Below are positions 1,300-63,147 of a stretch of 64,000 bases of DNA, one piece after another. A program made the translations under genes and the position numbers. The DNA comes from Candidatus Omnitrophota bacterium (GTDB lineage: Bacteria; Omnitrophota; Gorgyraeia; Zapsychrales; Zapsychraceae), in contig JADFYJ010000001.1 in NCBI GenBank assembly GCA_015233115.1, forward strand, positions 195,084 through 259,083, in the 5' to 3' direction. A model generated the notes under the pieces. The model ran no database searches. It worked only from the letters and a program-made list of their open reading frames with translations, and had not been told where the DNA came from. Positions within the stretch are counted from its first letter, which is position 1; every line of letters starts with the position of its first letter.

Positions 1300-1707
1300 G
1301 TTGATCCTTTGTAAGACCATTGTCCCTCCGTAGAACAAAGTCAATATAAAGTGGAAAACGCCTATATTCAAAAAACTCTTTTTTTTCTATGATGGGAACA
1401 GTTCCGGTTTTGTCTGGGGGGGCAAACAACATCTACGCGGAGTTTTTTGATGTTTAAAATGTTTTTATTGCTCCCCAAAAACACATCAGCGCTCGACGGA
1501 AAATTTTTTCCGTTGATTGCTGTTTTTTTTTGCCGCGCACAAACATATATTTTAGAAATATTATTGTCAAAAGGAGGACATATAGAGCTCATGACTCAAA
1601 TAAAACATAAATTTGTTATGTTGTAAAAATGGGTTGATGCTGGTGAATATACCACCCCAGCGCCCTAATTCTAAAAATCAAATTAAATGGATAAAATGAG
1701 GTGCTAT

Positions 1708-4516: not shown

Positions 4517-5392
4517 ATGTATCAAAAAAAAATTTCACCATTGGTTATTTTATGTTTAATTTTAGGGCAAAATTCTTTAGCATTTGCCAATTATGCGGTT
4601 GAGATTTCTGATTATGAACTTGATCAAGTTCATGCCGGAGGATTAAATCTTAACTTTGACAATTTTTTAGGTTCTATGAATACCGCGGCTGATACAGCTA
4701 GCAAAAGTTCTGTAGTTGATATCAACACAACGGCTAAGAATTCGTTAGTGACAAATTCAAACAATTCCGGAGTAACTATTTTAGCGCCGACTCAGCCTAA
4801 TTCTCCTACAGCGCCAACGGCGCCAACGGCTCCAACGGCTCCAGCTGCTCTAGTAGCGCCAACAGTTCCGACTTTGCCGACAGCGCCGGTTTTACCCATA
4901 ACTCCAACTAATCCAGCTTCTCCATTAGTTCCGACAGCTCCAATGCCGGTAGATCTAAGTCTTGCTTCAAATCCAAGCCTGGTGAGTGGATCGATAGCCG
5001 CACCTGAAGCACCATCGACTCCTGCGGTACCAGCCTTACCAGTATCGCCAGCTTCACCTGCAACACCAACGGCTCCTGCCACATCTGCCGCTGTTGCTAA
5101 TACACCTATGACATTTGATGTGGTGGCAAAAACAGGTAACAATTTTCAAGTGGCGTACTCAACAAATAGTAATGTTCAGCCAACTGCCTTTTCATCAACC
5201 GGGGGTATGAACTCAGTGAATGTTTCCGATACGGCGCAACAAAACTTAAGCGCTATGGTTAATGTTAACGCGGCAGGAAGTATTGTTCCTGTTCAAATTA
5301 ATTTAACTGTTCTCATGAATTCAACTGTGCAAAATCTTACCAATTCGAATGATTTGAAATTGAGTAATTACACGACGTTCTCCCTTCAGTAA
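4517..5392 (+). CDS. Exported Pro/Thr/Ala-rich repeat protein, a paralogue of the 1708..4434 protein (second subunit).
   Basis: AGGAGG RBS. Signal peptide with AFA cleavage-like site, then ISDYELDQVHAGG. PTAPTAPTAP low-complexity core. C-terminal N/V-rich segment (AMVNVNAAGSIVPVQINLT...) similar to the upstream protein. Confidence 0.7.
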   Translation: MYQKKISPLVILCLILGQNSLAFANYAVEISDYELDQVHAGGLNLNFDNFLGSMNTAADTASKSSVVDINTTAKNSLVTNSNNSGVTILAPTQPNSPTAPTAPTAPTAPAALVAPTVPTLPTAPVLPITPTNPASPLVPTAPMPVDLSLASNPSLVSGSIAAPEAPSTPAVPALPVSPASPATPTAPATSAAVANTPMTFDVVAKTGNNFQVAYSTNSNVQPTAFSSTGGMNSVNVSDTAQQNLSAMVNVNAAGSIVPVQINLTVLMNSTVQNLTNSNDLKLSNYTTFSLQ

Positions 5393-11194: not shown

Positions 11195-11280
11195 TGTCAT
11201 TCCCGCGAAAGCGGGAATCCATAAAAAATTTTTAGATTTTTTTATTAATGGATCCCCGACTAAAGCTCTCGGGGATGACA
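11195..11280 (+). repeat. Inverted pair of ATTCCC-N8-GGGAAT-type hairpins (TGTCATTCCCGCGAAAGCGGGAATCCA ... TGGATCCCCGACTAAAGCTCTCGGGGATGACA) flanking an A/T spacer. Same family as 35674..35700.
   Basis: Read directly. There is a near-identical copy after the znuA-like gene. Confidence 0.6.
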
Positions 11281-30629: not shown

Positions 30630-33600
30630 ATGACACTTTCAGACATATCGATTAAAAATCCCGTTTTCGCATGGATGCTTATGTTGGGCATTTTGGTTTT
30701 TGGTTTCATCGGTTTTCAACGTCTGGGCGTTAGCCAAATGCCTGACGTTGACTTCCCTATAGTATCCGTGTCAGTAACCTGGGAAGGAGCTGCCCCGGAA
30801 GTTATGGAAACTGATGTCACAGATGTTTTAGAAGACGCGGTCATGAGTGTGGAAGGGATTAAAGACGTCACTTCTGTTTCGAAACAAGGCCAAAGCCAGT
30901 TGACCATAGAGTTTAATTTGAATCGCAATATCGACGCGGCATTGCAGGATGTTCAAACCAAAATCGCGCAAGCTCAACGGAATTTACCAACAGATATTGA
31001 TCCGCCGATTGTAACCAAAACTAATCCTGAAGATCAACCCATTATGTGGGTTACTTATTCCGGTGATAAACCAATTAAAGAATTGTCAAAGTATGTTTTT
31101 GAAACCTTAAAAGATCAATTTACCGCAGTTCCCGGCGTAGGAACTATTCAATTAGGCGGTTATGTTGACCCTAATCTGAGGGTTTGGCTCAATGCTAAAA
31201 AAATGCAGGACAAAGAAATTACGGTCGAAGATATTTTAGGTACCATCAATACTCAACACGTTGACCAACCAGCCGGGTATATCGATACTGGTGTCAAAGA
31301 AATTAATGTGCGGGTTTATGGCGAAGCAACTACACCCGAAGAATTTCAAAATATCACGATCCCCCAACGCGTCCGTGGGGGACCAGTCTGGAATAATTTA
31401 CAGCTTAAAGATATTGCTACCGTGGAAGACGGATTGGCGGACATCCGCCGGATCGCCCGCACTTCAGGACAACCGTGTATAGGGATGGGAATCATCAAAC
31501 AGCGCGGATCCAACGCCGTTAAAGTCGCGGAAGCAGTTAAACAAAGAATGAAAGATTTAGAAAATCGACTTCCGGCTAATACTAAACTTAATCTGGTTTT
31601 TGATTCGACACAATTCATAAAAGATTCTGTCAATGAATTGAAATTTAATTTACTATTATCCGTTTTACTGACTTCTATGGTTTGCTTTTTCTTTTTGGGA
31701 TCCTGGACTGCGACCCTAAATGTTCTTTTGGCCATTCCCACGTCTGTTATGGGCGCGTTTGTGGTGCTCTATTTTCTTGGATTTACCATTAATACGTTTA
31801 CCATGCTGGGCCTGTCGCTAGTCATCGGAATTATCGTCGATGACGCAATCATGGTTTTGGAAAATATTTCCCGTTATCAAGAACAAGGCTTAGCCCGAAA
31901 AGCGGCGGCCATTATAGGCGCCCGTCAAATTACTTTTGCGGCATTAGCGGCATCCATTGCCATCTTGGCCATATTTATCCCGGTTATTTTCATGGAAGGG
32001 ATCGTTGGAAAATTCTTTTACCAGTTTGGTGTGACGATATCGGTGGCTGTTATGTTTTCATTATTAGAAGCATTGACGATCGCGCCGATGCGTTGTTCAC
32101 AATTTTTGGATGTAGGACATACCACTCGCCTAGGGAAAGTGGTCGATGGTTTCATGCATTGGTTAAGGTCAAGTTATCGTTCGATCTTAGCTTTTTTACT
32201 CAATCATCCGGGTAAAGTTTTAATTGTGGCCATTTTAATTTTCGCGGGATCTTTACAATTAAATAAACTTATTAAAAAAGAATTTGTCCCGTCTCAAGAC
32301 CAAAGCCGATTTATTGCCCGTTTAACAACCCCCCTGGGATCATCCTTGGATACAACAAATGCAGTATTTAAAAAAGCTGAAACCTTTTTTCTACAAAAGC
32401 CGGAAGTAGATAAAATTTTTGCTTCAGTCGGAGGGAGCCAGGTCAATCAGGGCATCATTTTTGTAACCATGAAACCCCGTGACCAACGCCCCATGATTAA
32501 CGGCCATCATGAAACCCAGCTTGAATTTATGGAAAATGTTAGAAAACCTTTGAACAAAATCCCGGGCATGCAGCGGGCGGTTATTCAAGATCTATCTCAA
32601 TCAGCATTTACGGCTAAACGCGGTTTCCCGGTTGAATTTACAGTTCAAGGCCCGGATTGGGATAAACTGGGTGTATATAGCCAAGAGCTTATGAAAAAAA
32701 TGAAAGAATCGGGCACGATGTCGGATATTGATACAGATTATCAGTTAGGTATGCCGGAGTTGCAAATCCATCCTGATCGTTTAAAAGCGGCGGCGCATGG
32801 CGTAAGCATTGGATCAATCGCGGATACCATTAATAGTATGATCGGAGGATTACGCGTTGGAAAGTATACCAGTAACGGAAAACGTTACGACATTCGCGTC
32901 CGATTAACCGGCGCAGATCGTTCTAAAACCGAAGATATTGATAATATTTGGATTCGTAACCAATATGGGGAACTCGTGCGATTATCCGATGTGACCACCG
33001 CTGAAGTTAAACCAACACTTTTTTCCGTAACCCGTGCCAGCCGTCAGAGGGCTGTCAGTATATTTGCTAATCCTAGCCAAGGTCATTCACAACAAGAAGC
33101 ATTAGACACTGTTACGAAATTGGCTAAAACAGTTCTCCCGCAAGATTATCATGTGGTTTTATCCGGAGGAGCAAAAGCGTATAAAGAATCTTTCCAAGGT
33201 TTAATATTCACTTTAATCTTAGGAATTTTTGTGGCATATATGGTTTTAGCGACTCAATTCAACAGTTTTCTTCATCCGTTTACTGTTCTTTTGGCATTAC
33301 CATTTAGTGTGACTGGCGCATTTTTAGCATTATATTTAAGCGGCCATTCCGTTAATCTTTACAGCATGATTGGACTTATTCTGCTAATGGGTATTGTGAA
33401 GAAAAATTCTATTTTACTGGTAGATTTTACGAATGAACGCAGAAGGGAAGGGCTTAATGTTAAAGACGCGCTTTTAGAAGCCTGCCCAGTCCGTTTGCGT
33501 CCTATTCTCATGACCTCCATTGCGACCGTAGCTGCGGCTATTCCATTGTCTTTAGCCATAGGACCAGGTTCAGAAGTTATGGTTCCAATGGCGGTATCCG

Positions 33601-33731
33601 TGGTCGGTGGCGTTACAGTTTCAACTTTCTTAACTTTATTTGTTGTGCCGTGCGCGTATGAACTATTCTCAAAAATCGAGCGCAAAAATTATAAAGAAGA
33701 AAAAAACGAAGAACAAAACACGTCACAATGA
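30630..33731 (+). CDS. RND efflux permease.
   Basis: 1033 aa; 12 TM helices and two large periplasmic loops; IVDDAIMVLENI motif. Confidence 0.9.
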   Translation: MTLSDISIKNPVFAWMLMLGILVFGFIGFQRLGVSQMPDVDFPIVSVSVTWEGAAPEVMETDVTDVLEDAVMSVEGIKDVTSVSKQGQSQLTIEFNLNRNIDAALQDVQTKIAQAQRNLPTDIDPPIVTKTNPEDQPIMWVTYSGDKPIKELSKYVFETLKDQFTAVPGVGTIQLGGYVDPNLRVWLNAKKMQDKEITVEDILGTINTQHVDQPAGYIDTGVKEINVRVYGEATTPEEFQNITIPQRVRGGPVWNNLQLKDIATVEDGLADIRRIARTSGQPCIGMGIIKQRGSNAVKVAEAVKQRMKDLENRLPANTKLNLVFDSTQFIKDSVNELKFNLLLSVLLTSMVCFFFLGSWTATLNVLLAIPTSVMGAFVVLYFLGFTINTFTMLGLSLVIGIIVDDAIMVLENISRYQEQGLARKAAAIIGARQITFAALAASIAILAIFIPVIFMEGIVGKFFYQFGVTISVAVMFSLLEALTIAPMRCSQFLDVGHTTRLGKVVDGFMHWLRSSYRSILAFLLNHPGKVLIVAILIFAGSLQLNKLIKKEFVPSQDQSRFIARLTTPLGSSLDTTNAVFKKAETFFLQKPEVDKIFASVGGSQVNQGIIFVTMKPRDQRPMINGHHETQLEFMENVRKPLNKIPGMQRAVIQDLSQSAFTAKRGFPVEFTVQGPDWDKLGVYSQELMKKMKESGTMSDIDTDYQLGMPELQIHPDRLKAAAHGVSIGSIADTINSMIGGLRVGKYTSNGKRYDIRVRLTGADRSKTEDIDNIWIRNQYGELVRLSDVTTAEVKPTLFSVTRASRQRAVSIFANPSQGHSQQEALDTVTKLAKTVLPQDYHVVLSGGAKAYKESFQGLIFTLILGIFVAYMVLATQFNSFLHPFTVLLALPFSVTGAFLALYLSGHSVNLYSMIGLILLMGIVKKNSILLVDFTNERRREGLNVKDALLEACPVRLRPILMTSIATVAAAIPLSLAIGPGSEVMVPMAVSVVGGVTVSTFLTLFVVPCAYELFSKIERKNYKEEKNEEQNTSQ

Positions 33732-33986
33732 CACAAAGTCACAAGGTCACAAAGGAAAACTTTGTAAAAAACGAAACGAGCAATAATTGACGTTAAAAAT
33801 GATCTTATTTAAAAATATAACAAAACAATATTACACGACGCTCTAGCAAAATGACGAATCCCATAAAAAATTTAATTTAATTTTGATATTTTTGTTTATT
33901 TAAATTTCGCGTAATGTGTTATTCTGTTTATCGTTTTATTAATCTTTACTACCCTTTGTGACTTTGTGTCCTTGTGACATTGTGAC
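33721..33986 (+). repeat. MITE-like element, copy A: terminal inverted repeats built from GTCACAA(G/A)G direct repeats, flanking an A/T-rich core.
   Basis: Left arm CGTCACAATGACACAAAGTCACAAGGTCACAAAGG overlaps the RND stop codon. Right arm CCTTTGTGACTTTGTGTCCTTGTGACATTGTGAC. Conserved sub-terminal AAAACTTTGTAAAAAACGAAAC and TTAATCTTTACTACC. Confidence 0.7.
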
Positions 33987-34030: not shown

Positions 34031-34687
34031 ATGGCTTTTACGGACCGGCTAAAAAGATGTTTTAAATTGCGTTTTGCCATTGTCTATCCATTCGCGATTT
34101 ACGCAGTTTTTTTCACCCATCCTGATGCGCAATCCATTTCACAGGGAATAGGATTTGTTGTTTTGGGATTATTGACCAGGCTCTGGTCTAATGGCTATGC
34201 CATTAAATTAGAGAAATTAACGACTTCCGGACCGTATGCTCATATTCGCCATCCTTTATATTTCGGCACATCACTCGTTCTTATAGGCTTTATCATTATG
34301 CTTAAAATGTATTTGGTGGGAATATTATTTTTCATCGTCGTAGTTTCTGTATATTTCCGCACCATTAAACAAGAAGAACAGATGCTGGAAGATAAATTTA
34401 AAGACGATTACCTTGATTATAAGAAAAAAGTTCCGGCATTTTATCCTGCTGTCCTGGCTTATTCAAAGGGAGAAAAGTGGCCCTTTAGTTTTGAACGGCT
34501 TATGAGAAGCAAAGAATATAAATCTGCCATTTGGGTTATTATTTTTATAATTTTTATTTATTTAAAAACTATCCTATTAGTACAAAAATTACCTATGAAT
34601 AATCGCTTATGGGCATTAGCTGCTATCGCTGTTTTGCTTGCCGCGACGGATATAACTGGGGAAATAATTAAAAAAGGTAAAAGATAG
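34031..34687 (+). CDS. ICMT/PEMT-family membrane methyltransferase.
   Basis: GPYAHIRHPLYFGTSLVLIG matches the isoprenylcysteine carboxyl / phospholipid methyltransferase motif. Multiple TM helices. Confidence 0.6.
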   Translation: MAFTDRLKRCFKLRFAIVYPFAIYAVFFTHPDAQSISQGIGFVVLGLLTRLWSNGYAIKLEKLTTSGPYAHIRHPLYFGTSLVLIGFIIMLKMYLVGILFFIVVVSVYFRTIKQEEQMLEDKFKDDYLDYKKKVPAFYPAVLAYSKGEKWPFSFERLMRSKEYKSAIWVIIFIIFIYLKTILLVQKLPMNNRLWALAAIAVLLAATDITGEIIKKGKR

Positions 34688-34748
34688 ACGTGGGACGAGG
34701 GATGATGGACGAAAAAGCGATTGCTCAAAAGCGAACAGCTAAAAAAAA

Positions 34749-35648
34749 ATGTTAAAAAAGACAATAAACCGCTCAATTTTTTATTTTGTTTTTTTTCTAT
34801 CTTCTATCGTCTATCTTCTATCGTCTATGACTTCACTTGTCTGCGCCCAAAAACCTCTGCGTATTGTTACTTCCTTTTATCCAATGTATATCATGGCGCT
34901 GAATGTAACTAAAGACATTCCTGGCGTTGTGGTTGAAAATTTAACTTCTTCCCAAACAGGTTGTTTGCATGATTATGCTCTGACGCCTGATGATATGAAA
35001 AAATTAACTGGTGCTAATTTATTTGTCGCTAACGGTGCTGGCATGGAAAATTTTTTAAACAATATAACAGCCCGCTATTCCCAGATTAAAATTGTCCAAT
35101 TAGCTGATGGTATTTCATTAATTAAAAACGGTAACGATATAAATCCGCATGTATGGACCAGCATTTCGAATGCGATTAAAGAAGTGGAAAATTTAAGCAA
35201 AGCGCTTGAAATTGCTGATCCCAGTCACCAAAAGGCTTATAGCGATAACGCTCATGCATATGTTATAAAATTAAAAAAAATACAGACTCTCATGCATAAA
35301 GAACTTTATATGTATATTGGGGAAAAAATCATTACTTTTCACGAAGCTTTTCCATATTTTGCCCAAGAATTTGGGTTGAATATCGCGGCGGTAATAGAGA
35401 GGGAGCCTGGTTCTGAGCCCAGCGCCAAGGAATTGGCGGATACAATTGATTTGGTTAAAAAAACCGGCATCAAGGCTTTATTTACCGAACCACAGTATCC
35501 GGCACTGGCAGCTCAAACGATTGCGCAAGAAACCGAAGCAAAAATTTTTACTTTAGATCCAGCAGTTACAGGGCCAGAAGAACCCGATGCATATATAAAC
35601 ATCATGACAAAAAATTTAAAAGTTTTGAAATCGGCGTTTACACAGTAA
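34749..35648 (+). CDS. Metal (Zn/Mn) ABC transporter substrate-binding protein, TroA/ZnuA family.
   Basis: Signal peptide. Cluster 9 SBP length and motifs (HVWTS, ITFHEAFPYFAQEFGL, ALFTEPQ). Followed by ATPase and permease genes. Confidence 0.8.
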   Translation: MLKKTINRSIFYFVFFLSSIVYLLSSMTSLVCAQKPLRIVTSFYPMYIMALNVTKDIPGVVVENLTSSQTGCLHDYALTPDDMKKLTGANLFVANGAGMENFLNNITARYSQIKIVQLADGISLIKNGNDINPHVWTSISNAIKEVENLSKALEIADPSHQKAYSDNAHAYVIKLKKIQTLMHKELYMYIGEKIITFHEAFPYFAQEFGLNIAAVIEREPGSEPSAKELADTIDLVKKTGIKALFTEPQYPALAAQTIAQETEAKIFTLDPAVTGPEEPDAYINIMTKNLKVLKSAFTQ

Positions 35649-35673
35649 TGTATTAAATATTTTTATATATCAC

Positions 35674-35700
35674 TGTCATTCCCGCGAAGGCGGGAATCCA
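35674..35700 (+). repeat. ATTCCC-N8-GGGAAT hairpin repeat (TGTCATTCCCGCGAAGGCGGGAATCCA), same family as 11195..11221.
   Basis: Near-identical to the copy after the enolase gene. Sits just after the stop codon of the upstream gene. Confidence 0.6.
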
Positions 35701-35752
35701 GTTTACGTTTCACTTTTCACTTCTCACATTTTACATTTTAAAAGGTTGTTTT

Positions 35753-36481
35753 ATGCCTCGAGATTGCGGACATTGCTGCACCCGAATATCGGATCTTAAT
35801 GTTAAGATCAATGGTCATCATATTTTACAAAATATTAATTTGCATATTAATTGCGGTGAAATTTTGGCTATTATCGGACCGAACGGAGCAGGTAAAACCA
35901 CTTTATTAAACGCGATTCTTGGAGAAATGCCCTACACAGGGAAAATGTCATTCTTAGTCAAAAAGACTCGCGCCAACAAGCCCAAAATAGGATATGTTCC
36001 GCAAAGACTGCAGATTGAACCAAATTCTCCAGTCAGTGTGCAAGATTTTGTGTCTGCTTCAATTTCGAACCATCCGATCTGGACTGGTTTCCCCAAAAAA
36101 GTTGCGGATCAATGCCTAGAATGCTTAAAACCTTTTTCCGCTGAGCATTTGATTAAAAGAAAAATATGCGAACTTTCCGGAGGAGAACTACAAAGGGTTC
36201 TTTTGGCCACGGCTATGGTGCCGACTCCTGATTTACTATTGCTGGATGAACCAGGAACCGGAGTGGATGTGAGTGGTTTAGTGTTATTTTATGAATTAGT
36301 CCGAGGGCTCAGGACTCAGCATGATATCTCAGTGATCATTGTTACTCATGATTTATTTGGCGTCGCTGAATATGTAGATCATCTGGTGTTATTAAACCGG
36401 AGCATCATAGCGGAAGGGACTCCCCAGGAAGTGTTATCAGATAAAAAAACCTTTGAAACCTTTGCTTTCCACAAATTATGA
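35753..36481 (+). CDS. Metal ABC transporter ATP-binding protein (ZnuC-like).
   Basis: Walker A GPNGAGKTT, ABC signature LSGGELQR, Walker B LLLLDEP. Confidence 0.85.
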   Translation: MPRDCGHCCTRISDLNVKINGHHILQNINLHINCGEILAIIGPNGAGKTTLLNAILGEMPYTGKMSFLVKKTRANKPKIGYVPQRLQIEPNSPVSVQDFVSASISNHPIWTGFPKKVADQCLECLKPFSAEHLIKRKICELSGGELQRVLLATAMVPTPDLLLLDEPGTGVDVSGLVLFYELVRGLRTQHDISVIIVTHDLFGVAEYVDHLVLLNRSIIAEGTPQEVLSDKKTFETFAFHKL

Positions 36482-37326
36482 TTGATATTTGGTATAAATT
36501 CATTGAATTCTGTTTTCCCTTTAGTTGGACGCATTACGTCTTCATGAAAAATGCACTGTTGGCGATTATATTAATTTCGCCGGTTTTCGCGCAAATGGGG
36601 ACATTAGTCGTTAATAACCGAATGGTATTTTTTTCTGATGTTTTAGCGCATTCAACACTTGCCAGCTTAGCCATTGGAGTTATTTTTGGATTTCAGGAGC
36701 CTTCATTAGTTATGATTGGTTTTGCGGTACTTTTGGCTATTGCCATCAATTTTCTAAAAAAAATGTCCAATTTGTCCATGGATACAGTGTTAGGGATTTT
36801 ATCCGCATTTATTGTAGCATTAGGCGTGGTTATTTTAAGCAGACAGGGTGGATTTTCGAAATTTTCAACGTATTTAATTGGAGATATTCTTTCTATATCA
36901 ACGGAACAATTAGCTTCAATTATTTTTTTGTGGGTGATCGTGTTTTGGTTTTGGTACAAATACGGCAACAAATTAATACTTATGAGTGTAAATGCGTCTT
37001 TAGCCCGCAGCCGGGGAATCAATATTTTCTGGCTTGAAACCTCATTTACTGTACTTTTAGCTATTGTCATCATGGTAAATATAAAACTCGTAGGTATCCT
37101 GATCATGAATTCACTATTGGTGATTCCCGCCGCAGCCAGCCGTAACATCAGCCGCAATATTAAAACTTACACATTAAGCGCAGTCTTAATCAGTGTTATA
37201 TCCGGAATTACTGGATTAATCTTCTCTTATTATTGGGGAACCGCATCCGGAGCAACAATCGTCATTTTTCTAACCTTATCTTACGTCATCACATTAATTT
37301 ACGCAAAAATATTACAATCCAGATAA
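36478..37326 (+). CDS. Metal ABC transporter permease (ZnuB-like).
   Basis: 8-TM ABC-3 type permease. 4-nt overlap with the ATPase gene. Confidence 0.8.
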   Translation: MIDIWYKFIEFCFPFSWTHYVFMKNALLAIILISPVFAQMGTLVVNNRMVFFSDVLAHSTLASLAIGVIFGFQEPSLVMIGFAVLLAIAINFLKKMSNLSMDTVLGILSAFIVALGVVILSRQGGFSKFSTYLIGDILSISTEQLASIIFLWVIVFWFWYKYGNKLILMSVNASLARSRGINIFWLETSFTVLLAIVIMVNIKLVGILIMNSLLVIPAAASRNISRNIKTYTLSAVLISVISGITGLIFSYYWGTASGATIVIFLTLSYVITLIYAKILQSR

Positions 37327-38468: not shown

Positions 38469-38664
38469 TCCTATATCTTTAGGGCCCCGAAGGATATATT
38501 TTAAGCCGAATTTCTGACCTTCAAGGAAGCGGGAGATACCAGCAGGGGGGTGAATCTCATGTAACATGAGAGGGATAGCTGCCATCCTAACCCATCAACT
38601 AATCTCGCAGGCTAGGCAGTATTTTTTTATTAGTTCAAGCTTTAAATATTTTTTGTGGGGGATA

Positions 38665-42513: not shown

Positions 42514-42670
42514 ATTCACATCGTTAAAGTAAAAAGTTAAAAGTAAGAAGTAAAAGTAAAACCAATAATACCAAGCTAGAAAACAATAAAAAAAATGCAT
42601 AAAAATAAATTTATGCTAAAATATCGGCCATAAACGACAATAGAATAAAATTCTTAAAAGAGGACTGGTT

Positions 42671-47611: not shown

Positions 47612-49237
47612 ATGTTTTGTTTTCAATGTCAGGAAACTGTACGTAATCAAGGCTGTACAATTCGCGGAGTATGCGGTAAACCAGATCAAACCGCAAATCT
47701 ACAGGATCTAATTGGTTATGTGTGTAAAGGGATTTCATTTTTAGCCGAAAAAGGGACACCTGACCTGGCTGTTGGTCGCTTTGTCGCCCGTGCCATGTTT
47801 TCTACGATCACCAACGCGAATTTTGATGATGACCGCATGATTGCGATTATCAAAGAAGGCTTAACCGTCCGGGATGCTTTAAAACAAAAAATCTGCAGCG
47901 GCGGATGTAGTTGTTCAGTACCTGATTGCGTATCATGGACTGCAAATACCAACGAAGCCTTACTAGAAAAATCTAAAACTGTCGGTGTTTTAGCCACTTC
48001 CAATGAAGATGTGCGGTCATTACAACAACTTTTAATTTATGGGATCAAAGGGATATCGGCGTATGCCACTCATGCCTCAGTCCTTGGCTATGAAGATCCT
48101 ACAATTTTTAATTTTATCTTTGAGGGATTAGCTTCAACTGTAAAAAGCCTTCCTGTTGATGAAATGGTAGGCTTAGTTATGAAATGCGGACAAACGGCTG
48201 TAACGACCATGGCTTTATTAGACAAAGCTAATACCTCAACGTATGGCAAACCCGAAATTACTAAAGTAAATATCGGTGTCCGAAAAAATCCGGGAATTCT
48301 TATATCTGGGCACGATTTAAAAGATATGGAAGAGCTTCTTAAACAAACCGAAGGGACAGGCGTGGATGTTTATACGCACAGTGAAATGCTCCCTGCCAAT
48401 TATTACCCAGCGTTTAAAAAATATTCACATTTTGTAGGAAATTACGGCGGCTCCTGGTGGCATCAAAATGATGAATTTGAATCATTTAACGGGCCGATAT
48501 TAATGACTACCAACTGTATCATACCTGTCAAAGAATCATATAAAAATCGTTTTTTTACGACCGGCATGGCTGGATACCCAGGCGTAACGCATTTACCTGA
48601 ACCCCAAGCAGGAAAACCTAAAGATTTTTCGGAAATTATAACTTTAGCTAAAAAATGTTCATCTCCGAAAGAGCTGGAAACCGGTGAAATTGTTGGAGGT
48701 TTTGCCCACGATCAAATTTTAGCTTTGGCGGATACAGTCGTAGCCGCTGTCAAATCAGGAGCAATTAAACGGTTTGTGGTCATGGCAGGATGTGACGGCC
48801 GGTTTACTACCCGCAAATATTTCACTGATGTCGCAGAAACCTTACCCAAAGACACGATTATTCTCACTGCCGGATGCGCAAAATACCGGTATAACAAACT
48901 TAAATTAGGCGATATCGGCGGAATACCGCGTGTTTTGGATGCGGGACAGTGCAATGATTCATACTCCTTAGCTCTGGTGGCGCTGAAACTTAAGGAAGTA
49001 TTCGGATTGCAGGATGTCAATGAACTTCCTTTGTCATTTGATATCGCATGGTATGAACAAAAAGCAGTCGCAGTTTTATTAGCTGTTTTATCGTTAGGAT
49101 TCAAAAATATTCGGCTTGGGCCAACCTTACCGGCGTTTTTGTCTCCTAATATTGCTAAAGTTTTGGTTGAGAAATTCGATATTAAACCCACTACAGAAGC
49201 GGAAACTGATGTCGCAGCTATGATGGCAGGTAAATAA
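47612..49237 (+). CDS. hcp: Hybrid cluster protein / hydroxylamine reductase.
   Basis: N-terminal MFCFQCQET...CGK cubane motif and the typical Hcp length, with conserved motifs throughout. Confidence 0.92.
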
Positions 49238-49240
49238 AAA

Positions 49241-49423
49241 GGTCACAAGGACACAAAGTCACAAGGACACAAAGTCACAAGGTCACAAAGGTAAAATAAT
49301 TATTAAAATGCGATTAACCAAAAACATGAATGATTTTGACATGAAAGAAAATAATTGTTTTTTAAATATTTTTTTATTTTTATGTTTATTCGTTGTTTTA
49401 CGTGTGACCTTGTGACTTGTGGC
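49241..49423 (+). repeat. MITE-like element, copy B: GTCACAAGG-repeat terminal inverted repeats.
   Basis: Left arm GGTCACAAGGACACAAAGTCACAAGGACACAAAGTCACAAGGTCACAAAGG begins 4 nt after the hcp stop. Right arm is CGTGTGACCTTGTGACTTGTGG. Confidence 0.65.
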
Positions 49424-49436
49424 TTTTCAATAAAAA

Positions 49437-49461
49437 GCCGTCTATGATAGACGGCTTTTTT
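49437..49461 (+). terminator. Rho-independent terminator.
   Basis: GCCGTCTA-TGA-TAGACGGC followed by TTTTTT. Confidence 0.7.
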
Positions 49462-49865
49462 GTGTTACCTAATCCAAGAAGAGACTGAGCACCATTCTTA
49501 GATCAGGAACTGCGCCTTACGCGAAATCGGCTGTATCGCCTTTGCTAAATAGCGTAAGGTTAATGCAGACACTCAAACTTTAAATATAAAAAGATCGGGT
49601 TTGAGAACATTAAACCGTATTTTTTAATCCAAGCCCACGGTTAATAATGATTCTCATCTTGAGCATGGCCATTCATAAATTTACACATTTATGAAAGGCT
49701 CATTTTTTCGTGCTCGTACCCGATCGTTATCAAAGATCTTATCTATTTTTAGTATAACGAATGAAACAAAAATATATATAGGACTAAAGTTTCATTGATC
49801 CGTAATTTTTCTTGTGATTATGGCGTAGTTATGCTAATTTTTGAGGTTAAATTAAGAGGAGACTT

Positions 49866-51560
49866 ATGAAAAAATTAGCCCTAAGTATGCTGCTTCTTTT
49901 TATTCCAGCCATGTCAAAGGCAGCGATATATGACTTGGAACCAATAAAAATTTATAGTTTGAACAATAACGGCCAAGATGCAGCTAATACTCAAAACATC
50001 CCCAACAGCTCATCTGGCGTAGATATCCAAACCCGGGTTGATGAAGGCATTCTCCAGGATATTTCAATCCGGGGCGGCACTTTTGAAGACGCGGATGTAC
50101 GGATGAACGGTGTCAATTTAGACAATCCGCAGACTGGCCACTTCAACTTGGCTTTGCCGATAGTATCGACAGATATTATCAATAGTAAAGTTGACCTTAA
50201 CGGCCAATATATTGATTACAATCTCAAAATGCCCCAAAAAAATGAGGCCATGGTTCGGGTTTCTGCCGGAAATGGCGGATACGCGGATACATTGATATCA
50301 GCTTCTTTTGGAAAAAATAATACTTTCAACCGTTTCTCGTATGAAGGTATGCGTACTGACGGACTTTTACCCCAAACTGATGCCGATAAAAATGCGGTTT
50401 CCTATACTTTTTTTCATGACGCGGATTTTATGACTTCGAAAATTTATGCTTCATATCTAAATAAAAATTATGGAGCAGGCGGCGCGTACGGCGCTCCCTG
50501 GTATATGGCAGAAGAAGAGCATCTTGAGCAGCATTATTTAATGAGCCAGCTGACATTTAAACAAAATTTAGATCTTGAACTCACGCCATATATTTACCGG
50601 ACTGATGATACATTTTTTTTGAACCGTGATGATCGTACTCATAATCGCAATGACCACACCATGTATGTTTATGGAAATAATGCTAAATCTTTTTTTCTTG
50701 ATCGCTTATTTTATGGCGAATTAGATGTGCGGGAAGAAAGTATTGATTCAACGAATTTACTGGAACATAACCGGTTGGTATATGAAATGGGTTTGGGCCA
50801 GGAAGAAAAACAATTTGGAAAATTCGGTTACAACTTTTACGGTGGGTTATTATCATTAGACGGATATCCTTATAAATTTACACCCAAAGCCGGCATATTC
50901 TATGATGTGGCTCAAGGCTGGCGCGTCACTTTAGACGCGGCTAGAAAATATCGTCAACCATCATTTACAGAGCTATATTATTATTCTCCATCAAGTCATG
51001 GCAACAATACTTTAGTGCCCCAGCAATCGTCTAATTATGAATTAGGATTGACACGTAAATCTTCCGGATGGTTGTGGCGGGTTAACGGCTTTTATCGGCA
51101 TCAGGAAAATACAATTGATTGGGTAAAAAATAATAGCGATACTTTTTATCGCGCTATTAATGCCGGTCAATTAGAGGCCAGAGGATTTGATCTTAAATGG
51201 CAATACGACGCAAATTGGAAATTTTTAAAACGAATATCAGCAGAATATACCGGATTATTTCTCAATAAACAAAATAATTGGGATATGTCAAAATACGCGT
51301 TCGAATATTTGCAGGACCGTCTGGTATGTAAATTCGAACAATCAATAGGAAAATGGGACTTTGATGTGTCATATATTTATGAAGACCATATTAGTCAAAA
51401 AGGGCGCTCGCTGGTTAATGGCGGGGTGGTTTATAAAATGGCGCCGCGTAAGAGTATATTTTTAAGAGTGGATAATCTTTTTGATTTTGATTATTATGAA
51501 TTGCCGTATATAAGAGGAACCCCGGTTTCGGTTAAGGGGGGAATGGAGATAAAATTTTGA
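49866..51560 (+). CDS. TonB-dependent outer-membrane receptor (short, BtuB-sized).
   Basis: Signal peptide. Plug-domain motifs (DISIRGGTFEDADVRMNGVNLDNPQTGHFNL). C-terminal ...GGMEIKF with terminal Phe. GAGGAG RBS. Confidence 0.65.
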   Translation: MKKLALSMLLLFIPAMSKAAIYDLEPIKIYSLNNNGQDAANTQNIPNSSSGVDIQTRVDEGILQDISIRGGTFEDADVRMNGVNLDNPQTGHFNLALPIVSTDIINSKVDLNGQYIDYNLKMPQKNEAMVRVSAGNGGYADTLISASFGKNNTFNRFSYEGMRTDGLLPQTDADKNAVSYTFFHDADFMTSKIYASYLNKNYGAGGAYGAPWYMAEEEHLEQHYLMSQLTFKQNLDLELTPYIYRTDDTFFLNRDDRTHNRNDHTMYVYGNNAKSFFLDRLFYGELDVREESIDSTNLLEHNRLVYEMGLGQEEKQFGKFGYNFYGGLLSLDGYPYKFTPKAGIFYDVAQGWRVTLDAARKYRQPSFTELYYYSPSSHGNNTLVPQQSSNYELGLTRKSSGWLWRVNGFYRHQENTIDWVKNNSDTFYRAINAGQLEARGFDLKWQYDANWKFLKRISAEYTGLFLNKQNNWDMSKYAFEYLQDRLVCKFEQSIGKWDFDVSYIYEDHISQKGRSLVNGGVVYKMAPRKSIFLRVDNLFDFDYYELPYIRGTPVSVKGGMEIKF

Positions 51561-51608
51561 AATTGTGACAATGTAACAATGTGGCATTGAAAAATCGATT
51601 ATTGTAAA

Positions 51609-51705
51609 GCGCGCGGATTGGGCGGTTAGCATTTAAACCGAATCCTTCGCTCAAACAACCTTGGCGAAGCGCCAAGGAAACTCGCTCGGGGATTCAGTTT
51701 AAAAG
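51609..51705 (+). repeat. Roughly 95-nt structured repeat, copy 1. Conserved TCCTTCGCTCAAACA - GAAG hairpin - AACTCGCTCGGGGA with compensatory stems.
   Basis: Aligns with 58465..58555. The inner stem CCTTGGCG/CGCCAAGG and outer stem GAATCC/GGATTC differ in sequence from copy 2 but keep their pairing. Confidence 0.5.
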
Positions 51706-58464: not shown

Positions 58465-58555
58465 GAGCGCAACGGGCGACGTTTCAACCAAGTCCTTCGC
58501 TCAAACAGCTGAGCCGAAGCGGCTCAGAACTCGCTCTGGGACTCGGTTTCCACTC
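58465..58555 (+). repeat. Roughly 95-nt structured repeat, copy 2 (see 51609..51705), in the trpGD-trpB intergenic region.
   Basis: GAGCGCAACGGGCGACGTTTCAACCAAGTCCTTCGCTCAAACAGCTGAGCCGAAGCGGCTCAGAACTCGCTCTGGGACTCGGTTT. Confidence 0.5.
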
Positions 58556-59843: not shown

Positions 59844-59864
59844 AATGTGATAAAAGATGCTGTT

Positions 59865-59993
59865 GTAGGGGCGATCTCCTGATCGCCCGCACTATAAAAG
59901 ATTTATAAATTATCATTTCGGTTTTTTTTGTTTGTATTTTTGAAATAAAAAAGCGAATATTTTGTAAACGGGCGATCAGGAGATCGCCCCTAC
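59865..59993 (+). repeat. Long inverted repeat, GTAGGGGCGATCTCCTGATCGCCCG ... CGGGCGATCAGGAGATCGCCCCTAC, flanking an A/T-rich 79-bp core.
   Basis: 25-bp arms that are exact reverse complements. Each arm is also internally palindromic (GGCGATC-TCCT-GATCGCC). Confidence 0.7.
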
Positions 59994-60140
59994 GACCAAG
60001 GACGCAATGTCCGCGTAGTGCTGGAAGCTCCTGCGAGCAGTGCGACCAAGGACGCAATGTCCGCGTAGTGCTGGAAGCTCCTGCGAGCAGTGCGACCAAG
60101 GACGCAATGTCCGCGTAGTGCTGAAGCTCCTGCGAATGGC
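59994..60140 (+). repeat. 50-bp direct tandem repeat, about 2.9 copies (GACCAAGGACGCAATGTCCGCGTAGTGCTGGAAGCTCCTGCGAGCAGTGC).
   Basis: Units at 59994-60043 and 60044-60093 are identical. The third unit is degenerate, with a 1-nt deletion and a diverged end. Confidence 0.8.
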
Positions 60141-60157
60141 ACAAAAATATATTAAAA

Positions 60158-62970: not shown

Positions 62971-63147
62971 AAAGTCACAAAGTCACACGTCACAAGGTCA
63001 CAAAGGAAAATTTTGTTTAAAAACAAAACAAAAAGCGAATGATTAAATTTTGTTTTTTTAGTTTATTTATTTTTCTTATTGTTTGAGGTGTTATTTTTTT
63101 AATCTTTATTAGCCTTTGTGACATTGTGACTTTGTGTCCTTGTGACT
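62971..63147 (+). repeat. MITE-like element, copy C, lying entirely between iorA and iorB.
   Basis: Left arm AAAGTCACAAAGTCACACGTCACAAGGTCACAAAGG. Right arm CCTTTGTGACATTGTGACTTTGTGTCCTTGTGAC. The sub-terminal sequences match copy A. Confidence 0.7.

Follow-up and report, generated by a model that had tools for sequence, protein, structure and literature searches.

Cyanobacteria have been known since 1990, and Xanthomonas since 2015, to carry tandem arrays of 7-8-nt units, whose origin and function are unexplained. Correia/NEMIS elements of Neisseria and ERIC/IRU elements of enterobacteria are non-coding, 100-300 bp long, bounded by terminal inverted repeats and located between co-transcribed genes; their long RNA hairpins can change mRNA processing or stability, and their presence varies between relatives. 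REP sequences (a palindrome after GTAG) and REPINs, which are mobilised by RAYT transposases, occur as intergenic inverted doublets, form hairpins and are spread in the genome. The Foldback (FB) transposons of Drosophila have terminal inverted repeats made of tandem short units, and the length of their arms varies. The Omnitrophota, the host phylum in this study, are a little-studied group of ultra-small bacteria.

In cyanobacteria, STRR hairpins consist of short-unit arrays that pair with each other between hupS and hupL (PMC2670836). Each Xanthomonas genome has 70-75 inverted pairs of GGGAATC arrays, which mostly have four units and could form stem-loops (Rehm et al. 2015, PMC4692102). The arrays are 89-93% intergenic, with a mean distance of 28 nt to the upstream ORF, and lie mostly between co-oriented genes; they are transcribed, have no IS association, and do not accompany the same genes in different species (PMC4692102). 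Repeats of the heptamer TAACTGA occur in Beggiatoaceae, Cyanobacteria and Bacteroidetes (MacGregor 2015, PMC4679880).

The window analysed here (the whole stretch of Omnitrophota DNA, 64 kb) carries three elements, A, B and C, and one solo arm. A sequence-only reading had described the three as a MITE-like repeat family with terminal inverted repeats. We found them at the same places (33722-33986, 49242-49423 and 62974-63146, with boundaries within 1-3 nt), with arms of about 34 nt and lengths of 173-265 bp; they do form a family with long terminal inverted repeats, and are small and non-coding. In our judgement there is an even chance that A, B and C are copies of a small non-coding insertion element of foldback type, of the same kind as the inverted pairs of STRR and GGGAATC arrays. 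The features are as follows.

33722-33986, no strand assigned: element A, 265 bp, between the RND pump gene and the ICMT/PEMT-family gene
33722-33755: left arm of A, four octamers plus GG (GTCACAAT GACACAAA GTCACAAG GTCACAAA GG)
33756-33952: A/T-rich core of A
33953-33986: right arm of A, CC plus four octamers (CC TTTGTGAC TTTGTGTC CTTGTGAC ATTGTGAC)
30630-33731 and 34031-34687, both + strand: genes flanking A, encoding the RND pump and the ICMT/PEMT-family protein
33729-33731, + strand: TGA stop codon of the RND transporter gene, within the left arm of A (GTCACAATGAC)
49242-49423, no strand assigned: element B, 182 bp, 3' of the hybrid-cluster-protein (Prismane) gene at 47612-49237
49242-49291: left arm of B, six octamers, (GTCACAAGGACACAAA)x2.5 + GTCACAAA + GG
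49292-49401: core of B
49402-49423: right arm of B, short and degenerate (GTGTGAC CTTGTGAC TTGTGGC)
49437-49461, + strand: G+C-rich hairpin plus T-run (GCCGTCTATGATAGACGGCTTTTTT), directly 3' of element B and outside it
51562-51585, no strand assigned: solo degenerate array resembling a right arm (ATTGTGAC AATGTAAC AATGTGGC), without a left partner
62974-63146, no strand assigned: element C, 173 bp, inside the iorA-iorB operon
62974-63006: left arm of C, with one unit shortened to GTCACAC (1-nt loss)
63007-63112: core of C
63113-63146: right arm of C

The arms of all three elements are tandem octamers, G(T/A)CACAA(G/A/T), inverted around an A/T-rich core of about 107-197 nt. The basic arm has four units, with the consensus GTCACAAK-GACACAAA-GTCACAAK-GTCACAAA-GG, also written GTCACAAKGACACAAAGTCACAAKGTCACAAAGG, and GWCACAAR as the unit. 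The arms are 83-92% complementary, both within and between copies, and range from 2.5 to 6 units when read from the sequence; Tandem Repeats Finder returned a period of 8/16 with 3.9-6.2 copies in six of six arms. Within the 64-kb window, the 17-mer GTCACAARGKCACAAAG with at most three mismatches was found 18 times against 0.41 expected (~40-fold), each time inside one of the three elements, and GTCACAA was found 19 times against 5.9 expected, with 17 of the 19 matches in the elements. The order of units is kept among the left arms of A and B and the right arm of C, with microsatellite-type changes elsewhere. The arrays have expanded and contracted, with a unit swap in A, a 16-nt duplication in B and the loss of 1 nt in C, and the two arms of B are unequal (six units on the left, 2.5 on the right). 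These data show that the arms behave as microsatellites in which units are gained, lost and swapped.

Copies A and C have more in common than their arms. As had been claimed from the sequence, they share sub-terminal stretches, for which we measured a 39-nt match (87%) on the left side and a 62-nt match (85%) on the right side. When the left sides were anchored at the array boundary, 15 of 20 positions matched (P=2e-4), and comparison of the two cores gave z=4.7 in the same orientation only. As sequence beyond the arms is common to both sides, at least A and C derive from one ancestral element. Whichever way it is oriented, the core of B is not significantly similar to that of A or C; B has just the arms in common with them and could be of separate origin.

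The nearest sequenced relative, GCA_015233195.1, is syntenic with the window over about 37 kb in a near-perfect manner, with protein identities of 81% for IorA and 84% for the permease, and allows filled and empty sites to be compared. At the junctions holding A, B and C, the spacers are 299, 628 and 204 nt in the window versus 0, 12 and -11 nt in the relative, so that all three of the three orthologous sites are empty there: the RND and ICMT/PEMT-family genes abut at the site of A, and iorA and iorB overlap by 11 nt at the site of C. No octamer arrays were found in 43.7 kb of the relative. Of two outgroups, one (L045) has an iorA/iorB overlap of 4 nt and the other (L046) an 80-nt spacer without arrays; judged from these genomes, they show the insertion between iorA and iorB to be derived. 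The comparison shows that A, B and C were gained in the lineage of the window at otherwise tight junctions. Protein sequences of the relative differ by about 20%, which is too much for the insertion boundaries to be placed at single-base resolution.

Element B begins 4 nt past the Prismane stop codon, and element C begins 11 nt past the iorA stop and ends 20 nt ahead of the iorB ATG. Element A starts at -10 nt relative to the stop codon of the RND gene, and its left arm overlaps the stop, as the earlier reading had noted, with TGA 33729-33731 spanning units 1 and 2. The C-terminal tail of the RND protein reads ...EEKNEEQNTSQ* in the window versus ...NTDNKLKGHL* in the relative, and the right flank of A, read by eye, gives PTLKTKGFKA, similar to the tail in the relative; in the 44 nt that follow A on its right side there seems to be a remnant of the original 3' end of the RND gene plus its RBS. 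The solo array begins one base past the stop of the TonB-dependent receptor gene (49866-51560), in a spacer of 185 nt in the window versus 21 nt in the relative.

If each locus were an independent product of slippage and template switching, in which a simple repeat grew and was then folded back, with the units having converged because this genome lets only certain units proliferate, no mobility would be needed. This is consistent with the microsatellite dynamics of the arms and with unrelated 7-nt arrays, built of other units, in window spacers at 34687-34712, 35708-35740 and 42526-42561; arrays with units of 5-11 nt have also been ascribed to slippage (Mrazek 2007, as cited in PMC4679880). 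However, such an origin does not explain why non-repetitive sub-terminal sequence, similarly oriented, is common to A and C at both ends, or why the order of variant units within arms is kept between loci, and the spacers of 0 or negative length in relatives leave nothing to expand from. We consider the chance of this explanation to be slim.

The sequence-only reading had also proposed a non-autonomous transposable element (a MITE). The elements do behave like one: they are non-coding, 173-265 bp long, have terminal inverted repeats of ~34 nt with a conserved unit order, number three per 64 kb, occupy sites that are empty in the relative, and in A and C share internal sequence. On this basis, an IS deletion derivative would be cut and pasted by a DDE transposase acting on the 34-nt terminal repeats, with the octamers as sub-terminal binding sites. 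In all three copies, GTCAC is preceded on the left by A4-5, and GTGAC is succeeded on the right by T4-5 and then A5; these flanks could hide an A-rich target duplication. However, no consistent direct repeat was seen by eye at plausible boundary pairs (three copies in a genome of 61% A+T), and no transposase or recombinase was detected by Pfam among the ten window ORFs scanned (window-specific and flanking), which gave ZnuABC, ICMT/PEMT, Prismane, a TonB-dependent receptor, EamA and a PALP enzyme. The three copies have no common conserved interior, A and C being partly alike and B unrelated, and no cognate autonomous IS was found among the window ORFs checked. The unrelated core and unequal arms of B, the solo arm and the solo in-frame arrays of other Omnitrophota also argue against this mechanism, 8 bp is short for a transposase site, and the occurrence elsewhere of the same architecture with quite different 7-8-nt units is a poor fit to one sequence-specific transposase. 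The insertion part of the earlier claim stands, membership of the MITE class is unproven, and we regard the classical MITE as unlikely. A phage or plasmid origin was rejected, with no matches in viral contigs or phage genomes; the only plasmid match was a (TTTGTGAC)x4 array on Leptolyngbya pRF1.

Folding of the full elements, suggested in the earlier reading, gave strong predictions: -66.1 kcal/mol for A (z -5.9), -69.9 kcal/mol for B including the adjoining terminator (z -7.9) and -57.5 kcal/mol for C (z -7.2). The stems are A/U-rich, enclose about 107-197 nt and are each followed by U4-5. An intrinsic terminator has a short G+C-rich stem, a loop of 3-8 nt and a U-tract. Scanning found no intrinsic terminator within A, B or C, and we rejected a terminator identity for the elements, given the lack of a consensus match and A/U-rich stems with a long enclosed core. 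The hairpin at 49437-49461, which follows B, is probably the intrinsic terminator of the upstream operon, as judged from its sequence and fold; it is absent from the list of the consensus scanner. Rfam gave no match on the elements at the gathering threshold or at E<=5, and its only match elsewhere in the window was a c-di-AMP riboswitch.

On a further view, the hairpin is a cis-acting mRNA element under selection: as an attenuator or terminator, as an RNase III site or as a stabiliser, it would govern how strongly the flanking cistrons are expressed relative to each other, and would be kept for this function. This would account for the very stable predicted folds, the U4-5 after each stem, the location at the 3' ends of cistrons, and the downstream RBS lying outside the stem in A and C. 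STRR hairpins of cyanobacteria have been proposed to stabilise transcripts or couple translation (PMC2670836). However, no compensatory changes were seen between arms. Stem mismatches comprise one G.U and one A.C in A, and no G.U and one A.C in C; as G.U is not in excess over A.C, nothing indicates selection on the + strand RNA. In addition, no element fits the terminator consensus, B directly precedes a real terminator, Rfam has no match even at the relaxed threshold, and the relative does without the elements. We therefore hold a selected RNA function to be improbable.

Other readings of the elements were rejected. As carriers of promoters or as invertons they do not qualify: promoter-like sites are no more numerous than in shuffled controls, with none in C, and no recombinase is present in the ten ORFs scanned. 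The only ORF (by eye) is an unconserved frame of 26 codons in C, which does not make a coding element. CRP-type sites (TGTGA-N6-TCACA) would need half-sites in the opposite relative order to that within an arm, and a CsrA sponge is not indicated, with AAGGA in some units only.

Ribbon-helix-helix proteins bind arrays: MetJ binds 8-bp met-boxes, and omega binds 7-bp heptads. The earlier reading had offered, as its alternative, arrays of binding sites for a TGTGAC-recognising factor, and our results speak neither for nor against that idea. The octamer arrays might likewise be bound on double-stranded DNA by a small protein, co-operatively and with one octad per dimer, as an operator, a centromere-like site or a nucleoid site. 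The exact 8-bp phasing, the conserved GWCAC core and the occurrence of direct, inverted and solo arrays agree with this, as does the presence of an identical octamer in many phyla, which fits a mobile binding protein; MacGregor speculated similarly about the TAACTGA repeats (PMC4679880). Nevertheless, the cores offer no excess of promoter-like sites over shuffled controls, sites after stop codons inside operons make poor sense for an operator, the arrays are missing from a close relative that has the same genes, and a candidate protein was not found. We give this explanation little credence.

Returning to the foldback-type insertion element, several consequences can be proposed. With every neighbouring gene on the + strand and with C inside an operon, A, B and C would be co-transcribed with these genes, and the 3' end of the upstream cistron would carry, in the transcript, an imperfect stem of ~30 bp. 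The likeliest consequence would be an effect on mRNA 3'-end stability or processing, with the stem acting as a barrier to 3' exonucleases or as an RNase III substrate. Alternatively, the elements may be near-neutral selfish DNA, tolerated only between the 3' side of a stop codon and the next RBS. The unit itself might spread via a trans-acting function encoded elsewhere, or by repeat-driven recombination or template switching.

Similar arrays occur in other genomes. An equivalent foldback is present in another Omnitrophota MAG (L003, 7354-7478), with arms of the heptamer GWCACAW; it begins immediately behind a stop codon. Solo arrays are present in other Omnitrophota, some of them even within genes and in frame. 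Paired inverted arrays of 7-8-nt units, separated by 9-110 nt, were found in Gemmatimonadota, a Schleiferiaceae MAG, Chloroflexota and several unassigned metagenome contigs. A crude survey of the window and the other fetched loci found arrays close to stop codons. Many metagenome pattern matches were rejected as unrelated, being eukaryotic-looking, retroposon-type repeats that end in (GTCACAAA)n. A literature search for the octamer returned only incidental primer matches.

A more speculative view, which we rate as a long shot, is that one widespread, undescribed system creates or mobilises phased arrays by stop codons, with the foldbacks and their 7-8-nt look-alikes as its footprints. The look-alikes meant are those in Omnitrophota, Bacteroidota, Chloroflexota, Acidobacteriota, Gemmatimonadota, BRC1 and cyanobacterial plasmids, and the system could be either a horizontally transferred protein whose subunits each bind one unit, or transposition or template switching with arrays as the ends. 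If true, this would explain the origin of STRR/LSSR arrays, a puzzle for decades, and the recurrence of identical units across phyla.

Whatever the mechanism, whole arm-core-arm units have been inserted at tight junctions, including that between the two subunits of one enzyme (iorA/iorB), and insertion A supplies a new stop codon for the transporter gene. These results show that: repeat hairpins can spread as units, besides growing in place; and such hairpins can inflate operon spacers in a compact genome. The window thus provides a clearly polarised case, and with metatranscriptomes or a complete genome its loci would be a simple natural test of the effect of a 30-bp repeat hairpin on a polycistronic mRNA and of array movement.

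The earlier description of the family as novel was overstated, as inverted pairs of long-unit tandem arrays 3' of ORFs are known (PMC2670836, PMC4692102). We place the elements among the inverted long-unit simple-sequence repeat pairs, with an octamer as the unit and an Omnitrophota bacterium as the host. The known mobile and intergenic elements resemble A, B and C in part. Correia/NEMIS and ERIC/IRU have unique, non-tandem terminal inverted repeats, defined target duplications (TA for Correia) and conserved interiors, whereas none of these was found here. FB transposons are an architectural likeness only, being eukaryotic, of kilobase scale and built of units of other sizes. REP/REPIN sequences differ from the octamer arms, which are not self-complementary and lack GTAG, and no Y1 transposase was detected in the ten ORFs scanned; a REPIN-like doublet, separate from the octamer elements, lies at 59862-59996. 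The TAACTGA repeats resemble the octamer in that an identical short unit occurs in distant phyla, as intergenic tandem arrays near gene boundaries and with no evident transfer mechanism. However, those repeats are direct and stand shortly before start codons, with one inverted case reported, whereas the arrays here are inverted pairs downstream of stops.

The closest likeness is to the STRR and Xanthomonas arrays, a comparison that rests on architecture and position and not on a common demonstrated mechanism. It extends to arrays of four units, to a place shortly 3' of ORFs and to the lack of conservation among relatives. The GGGAATC unit is a G-rich heptamer that could form quadruplexes, and its host has a high G+C content, whereas the octamer is A/C-rich without G-runs. 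STRR hairpins have a 7-bp unit and belong to a different phylum, whereas the unit here has 8 nt and so departs from the classical heptanucleotide, although a heptamer, GWCACAW, does occur in the other Omnitrophota MAG; a long, partly conserved A/T-rich core or shared sub-terminal sequence was not found described for them. In other respects, the elements have the properties of STRR/LSSR arrays: a 5-11-nt unit is repeated in tandem beyond chance; convergent arrays lie close together and can form a stem-loop; the arrays are intergenic, closer to where the upstream ORF ends than to where the next one starts, at -10, +4 and +11 nt from the upstream stops with all flanking genes on the + strand; and array length varies, with arrays missing at the same genes in the relative. 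As in the STRR hairpins, the arrays are able to pair and occupy a spacer inside one operon.

Each of the three non-coding foldback elements in the window consists of two inverted arms, which are tandem arrays of 8-nt units (octamers), with an A/T-rich core between them. Nearly all genes in the window lie on the + strand with short spacers, and the elements are situated as follows:

Element A, 33722-33986 (265 bp): left arm 33722-33755, right arm 33953-33986, core 197 nt; between the RND pump gene and an ICMT/PEMT-family gene.
Element B, 49242-49423 (182 bp): left arm 49242-49291, right arm 49402-49423, core 110 nt; begins 4 nt past the stop of the hybrid-cluster-protein (Prismane) gene, with a G+C-rich terminator-like hairpin next on its 3' side.
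Element C, 62974-63146 (173 bp): left arm 62974-63006, right arm 63113-63146, core 106 nt; extends from 11 nt past the iorA stop to 20 nt short of the iorB start (iorA and iorB encode the two subunits of indolepyruvate:ferredoxin oxidoreductase).

The sequence-only reading had described these three correctly as a repeat family, and the family is real. The arm unit is G(T/A)CACAA(G/A/T), the innermost unit always being GTCACAAAGG, and Tandem Repeats Finder called a period of 8 or 16 at all six arms. A 17-mer across two units (<=3 mismatches) gave 18 matches, all within A, B and C, versus 0.41 expected; GTCACAA gave 19 versus 5.9 expected, 17 of them within the elements. According to the repeat finder, the arms pair at 83-92% complementarity both within and between copies. 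The order GTCACAAK GACACAAA GTCACAAK GTCACAAA GG is common to the left arm of A, the last four units of the left arm of B and the right arm of C (reverse complement), and the middle two units are exchanged relative to it in the right arm of A. The left arm of B has six units (effectively 2.5 copies of a 16-mer with one further unit), its right arm has 2.5 degenerate units, and one unit in the left arm of C carries a 1-nt deletion. The arms have thus undergone microsatellite-type turnover.

A and C are also similar beyond the arrays, on both sides and in the same orientation (39 nt at 87% and 62 nt at 85%), so the shared sub-terminal sequence noticed earlier is real. With the edge of the array as the fixed point of the alignment, 15 of 20 positions were identical (P=2e-4), and the core similarity has a z of 4.7. 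A and C share a common ancestry. The core of B showed no significant similarity to either of the other cores in either orientation. An alternative is that the arrays arose by local slippage at each site independently, to which we would give only a slim chance.

RNA folding, which had been proposed as a check, predicts very stable structures (-57 to -70 kcal/mol, z -5.9 to -7.9) and hence a strong hairpin potential. A selected RNA element might be imagined on this basis. However, stem mismatches are A.C as frequently as G.U and compensatory changes between the arms are absent; nothing indicates selection specifically on the + strand RNA, and we hold this explanation to be very unlikely. Rfam returned no family match for the elements, even at E<=5, and no terminator consensus was found inside them. 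A role as promoter carriers was rejected, as promoter-like sites in the cores were not above shuffled controls and C has none. The elements are not REPs, because the arms are not individually palindromic and GTAG is absent. The tandem units might alternatively be a protein-binding array of the ribbon-helix-helix kind, which seems quite improbable.

The term "MITE-like" fits the behavior of the elements, but membership among MITEs is unproven. A classical MITE would be moved by a transposase; however, no transposase or recombinase was present among the neighboring or window-specific ORFs, and the search for target-site duplications at the ends, also proposed earlier, found nothing consistent across the three copies. 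Each copy, though, is bordered by A4-5 on the left side of GTCAC and by T4-5 followed by A5 on the right side of GTGAC; with three copies in a genome of 61% A+T, this pattern is no more than suggestive. A classical MITE is rather unlikely.

The nearest genome with DNA to compare, GCA_015233195.1 (IorA 81% and APC permease 84% identical), is syntenic gene for gene with positions 27-64 kb of the window, and its gene junctions are tight where the window carries the elements.

Spacer lengths at the three sites in the relative and in the window
Site A: relative, 0 nt (the next ATG directly follows the RND stop); window, 299 nt
Site B: relative, 12 nt past the Prismane gene stop; window, 628 nt
Site C: relative, iorA and iorB overlap by 11 nt; window, 204 nt

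The 43.7 kb of the relative contained no octamer arrays, and neither did 22 kb from a third Omnitrophota genome. Of two outgroups compared at site C, one shows the genes overlapping by 4 nt and the other an array-free spacer of 80 nt; therefore, the insertion of C is derived in the window lineage. Arm-core-arm units were inserted into tight gene junctions as derived events. As had been stated earlier, the left arm of A overlaps the RND stop codon (TGA, 33729-33731). The 44 nt to the right of A resemble the RND 3' end and RBS of the relative; judging from this sequence, A probably landed in the non-conserved tail of the RND gene and now provides its stop codon. The two genomes also differ in gene content: the znuABC zinc-uptake operon (34749-37326) is absent from the relative, while a dCache histidine-kinase gene following the Prismane gene (missing at 49238-49865) and a 191-aa gene after the permease are found in the relative and not in the window.

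The reading that we prefer, which in our judgment has an even chance of being right, is a mobile arm-core-arm hairpin unit of a known class of long-unit repeats. Such a unit might owe its mobility to a function encoded at some other locus, or else to recombination or template switching driven by the repeats. It would be co-transcribed with the flanking genes; an imperfect stem of ~30 bp would then form at the 3' end of the upstream cistron and might alter 3'-end stability or RNase III-type processing. Otherwise, the unit might persist near-neutrally where neither a coding region nor an RBS is disrupted.

The window also holds a solo degenerate arm, beginning one base past a stop codon, and further 7-nt arrays occupy its spacers. 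Other repeats and features are:

2422-2915 and 3330-3863: tandem repeats of 144 nt (48 codons) in two sets, with 71-76% identity, within a 915-aa ORF (1687-4434); by eye, the TRF consensus appears to be rich in Ser, Ala, Asp and Lys codons.
11198-11219 and 35677-35698: a G+C-rich hairpin repeat, CATTCCCGCGAAGGCGGGAATC, present twice; the copy at 35677-35698 is immediately followed by (TTTCACT)n, a heptamer array whose end is 13 nt short of the next start codon.
34687-34712: (GACGWGG)x4, flush with the ICMT-family gene stop codon.
34795-34835: (TCTATCK)x5, within the part of the ZnuA gene that encodes the signal peptide; as judged by eye, G.U pairs could allow it to pair with (GACGWGG)x4.
38494-38628 (+): c-di-AMP (ydaO-type) riboswitch (69 bits, E 6e-14) upstream of a BacA/UppP-family gene, whose true start is probably further downstream than the listed 38566, since the latter overlaps the aptamer.
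42526-42561: (AAAGTAA)x5, beginning 12 nt past a stop codon.
51636-51700 and 58486-58550: second repeat family (~65-75 nt, a hairpin within an outer stem), its two copies differing by 5 compensatory base-pair changes; no Rfam match; spacers 185 nt in the window versus 21 nt in the relative, and 203 nt versus a 4-nt overlap; either a structured RNA or one more small mobile element is conceivable.
59862-59889 and 59969-59996: REPIN-like doublet between trpB and trpA, inverted copies of GTAG plus palindrome (GTTGTAGGGGCGATCTCCTGATCGCCCG), 96% complementary, around a 79-nt A/T-rich core; three tandem 50-nt repeats (59993-60142) follow immediately.

An exact three-unit pattern, scanned in one genome per species, matched 11 loci in Gemmatimonadota, Bacteroidota, two Omnitrophota, Acidobacteriota, BRC1 and Chloroflexota; the source genome was not among the matches. 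Many of these have related octamers, inverted arrays and a short core, the same architecture as A, B and C. The clear counterpart in one Omnitrophota MAG (L003, 7354-7478) has GWCACAW heptamer arms directly past a stop codon. Another (L004/L038) has solo arrays in frame within genes: (GTCACAAA)x4 at 5199-5231 adds 11 in-frame codons to a long ORF, which by eye we take to be queC-like, and (AACGTCAC)x4 at 7364-7397 of L004 lies within a second ORF; therefore, octamer arrays can persist in coding sequence if their total length is in frame. In a crude survey, arrays lay <=13 nt from a stop in 21 of 53 cases and <=11 nt from a start in 7 of 49.

A Litorilinea aerophila MAG (L009, 1-330; L010, 4990-5140) carries tandem hairpin units, (CTTYGTGWC)n-TTTGTGGTT, loop, AACCACAAA-(GWCACAAAG)n, with ~30-nt spacers, an arrangement resembling a BIME cluster. 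The L009 series is just upstream of an ORF, presumably DNA-methyltransferase-like from its N-terminus read by eye. In a Bacteroidales MAG (L011, 4163-4548), long direct TTTGRARA octamer arrays flank a G+C-rich, apparently structured core and adjoin (GTCACAAA)x3. On the 4.2-kb cyanobacterial Leptolyngbya plasmid pRF1 (NC_004964.1, 4098-4174), a non-coding stretch has (AATCWWRC)n running straight into (TTTGTGAC)x4.

The pattern had no matches in viral contigs or phage genomes. The metagenome scan gave 28 loci, some being bacterial arrays whose unit changes along the array; one small contig (L017) terminates in an arm like those of the window and also has a heptamer-armed foldback with a different unit. 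Many others look eukaryotic, being repeats of the retroposon type with (GTCACAAA)n at their end and no relation to A, B and C. Freshwater metagenome contigs (L013, L015, L024-L027, L029, L030, L034-L036) share a conserved ~150-nt repeat (…TCCGAAGTACGAGCGAC…GTTACCACG) always ending in GACACAAAGTCACAAAGTCACAAAGG, and also carry GT-rich repeats and repeats of the TAGGGTT type; the ~150-nt repeat has the look of a retroposon from a eukaryote, its tail made of octamers, and has no relation to the bacterial elements.

Among known repeats, cyanobacterial STRRs have 7-bp units, are hairpin-capable and are located between hupS and hupL; transcript stability or translational coupling has been proposed, and their function is unknown (PMC2670836). 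Xanthomonas GGGAATC arrays, mostly of four units, form 70-75 convergent pairs per genome that could fold into stem-loops; 89-93% of the arrays are intergenic, and their mean distance from the upstream ORF is 28 nt. They are mostly flanked by co-oriented genes, transcribed, not linked to IS elements, and not conserved at the same genes between the two species compared (PMC4692102). Beggiatoaceae, Cyanobacteria and Bacteroidetes all have arrays of the heptamer TAACTGA, and no mechanism is evident for this recurrence (PMC4679880). A, B and C fit this class in every architectural and positional feature tested, but differ in their 8-nt unit, in their phylum, and in having a long core, part of which is conserved among copies and which travelled along with the arms. 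What is novel is thus the variant and not the class: the elements are an octamer variant, in Omnitrophota, of a known, still unexplained class.
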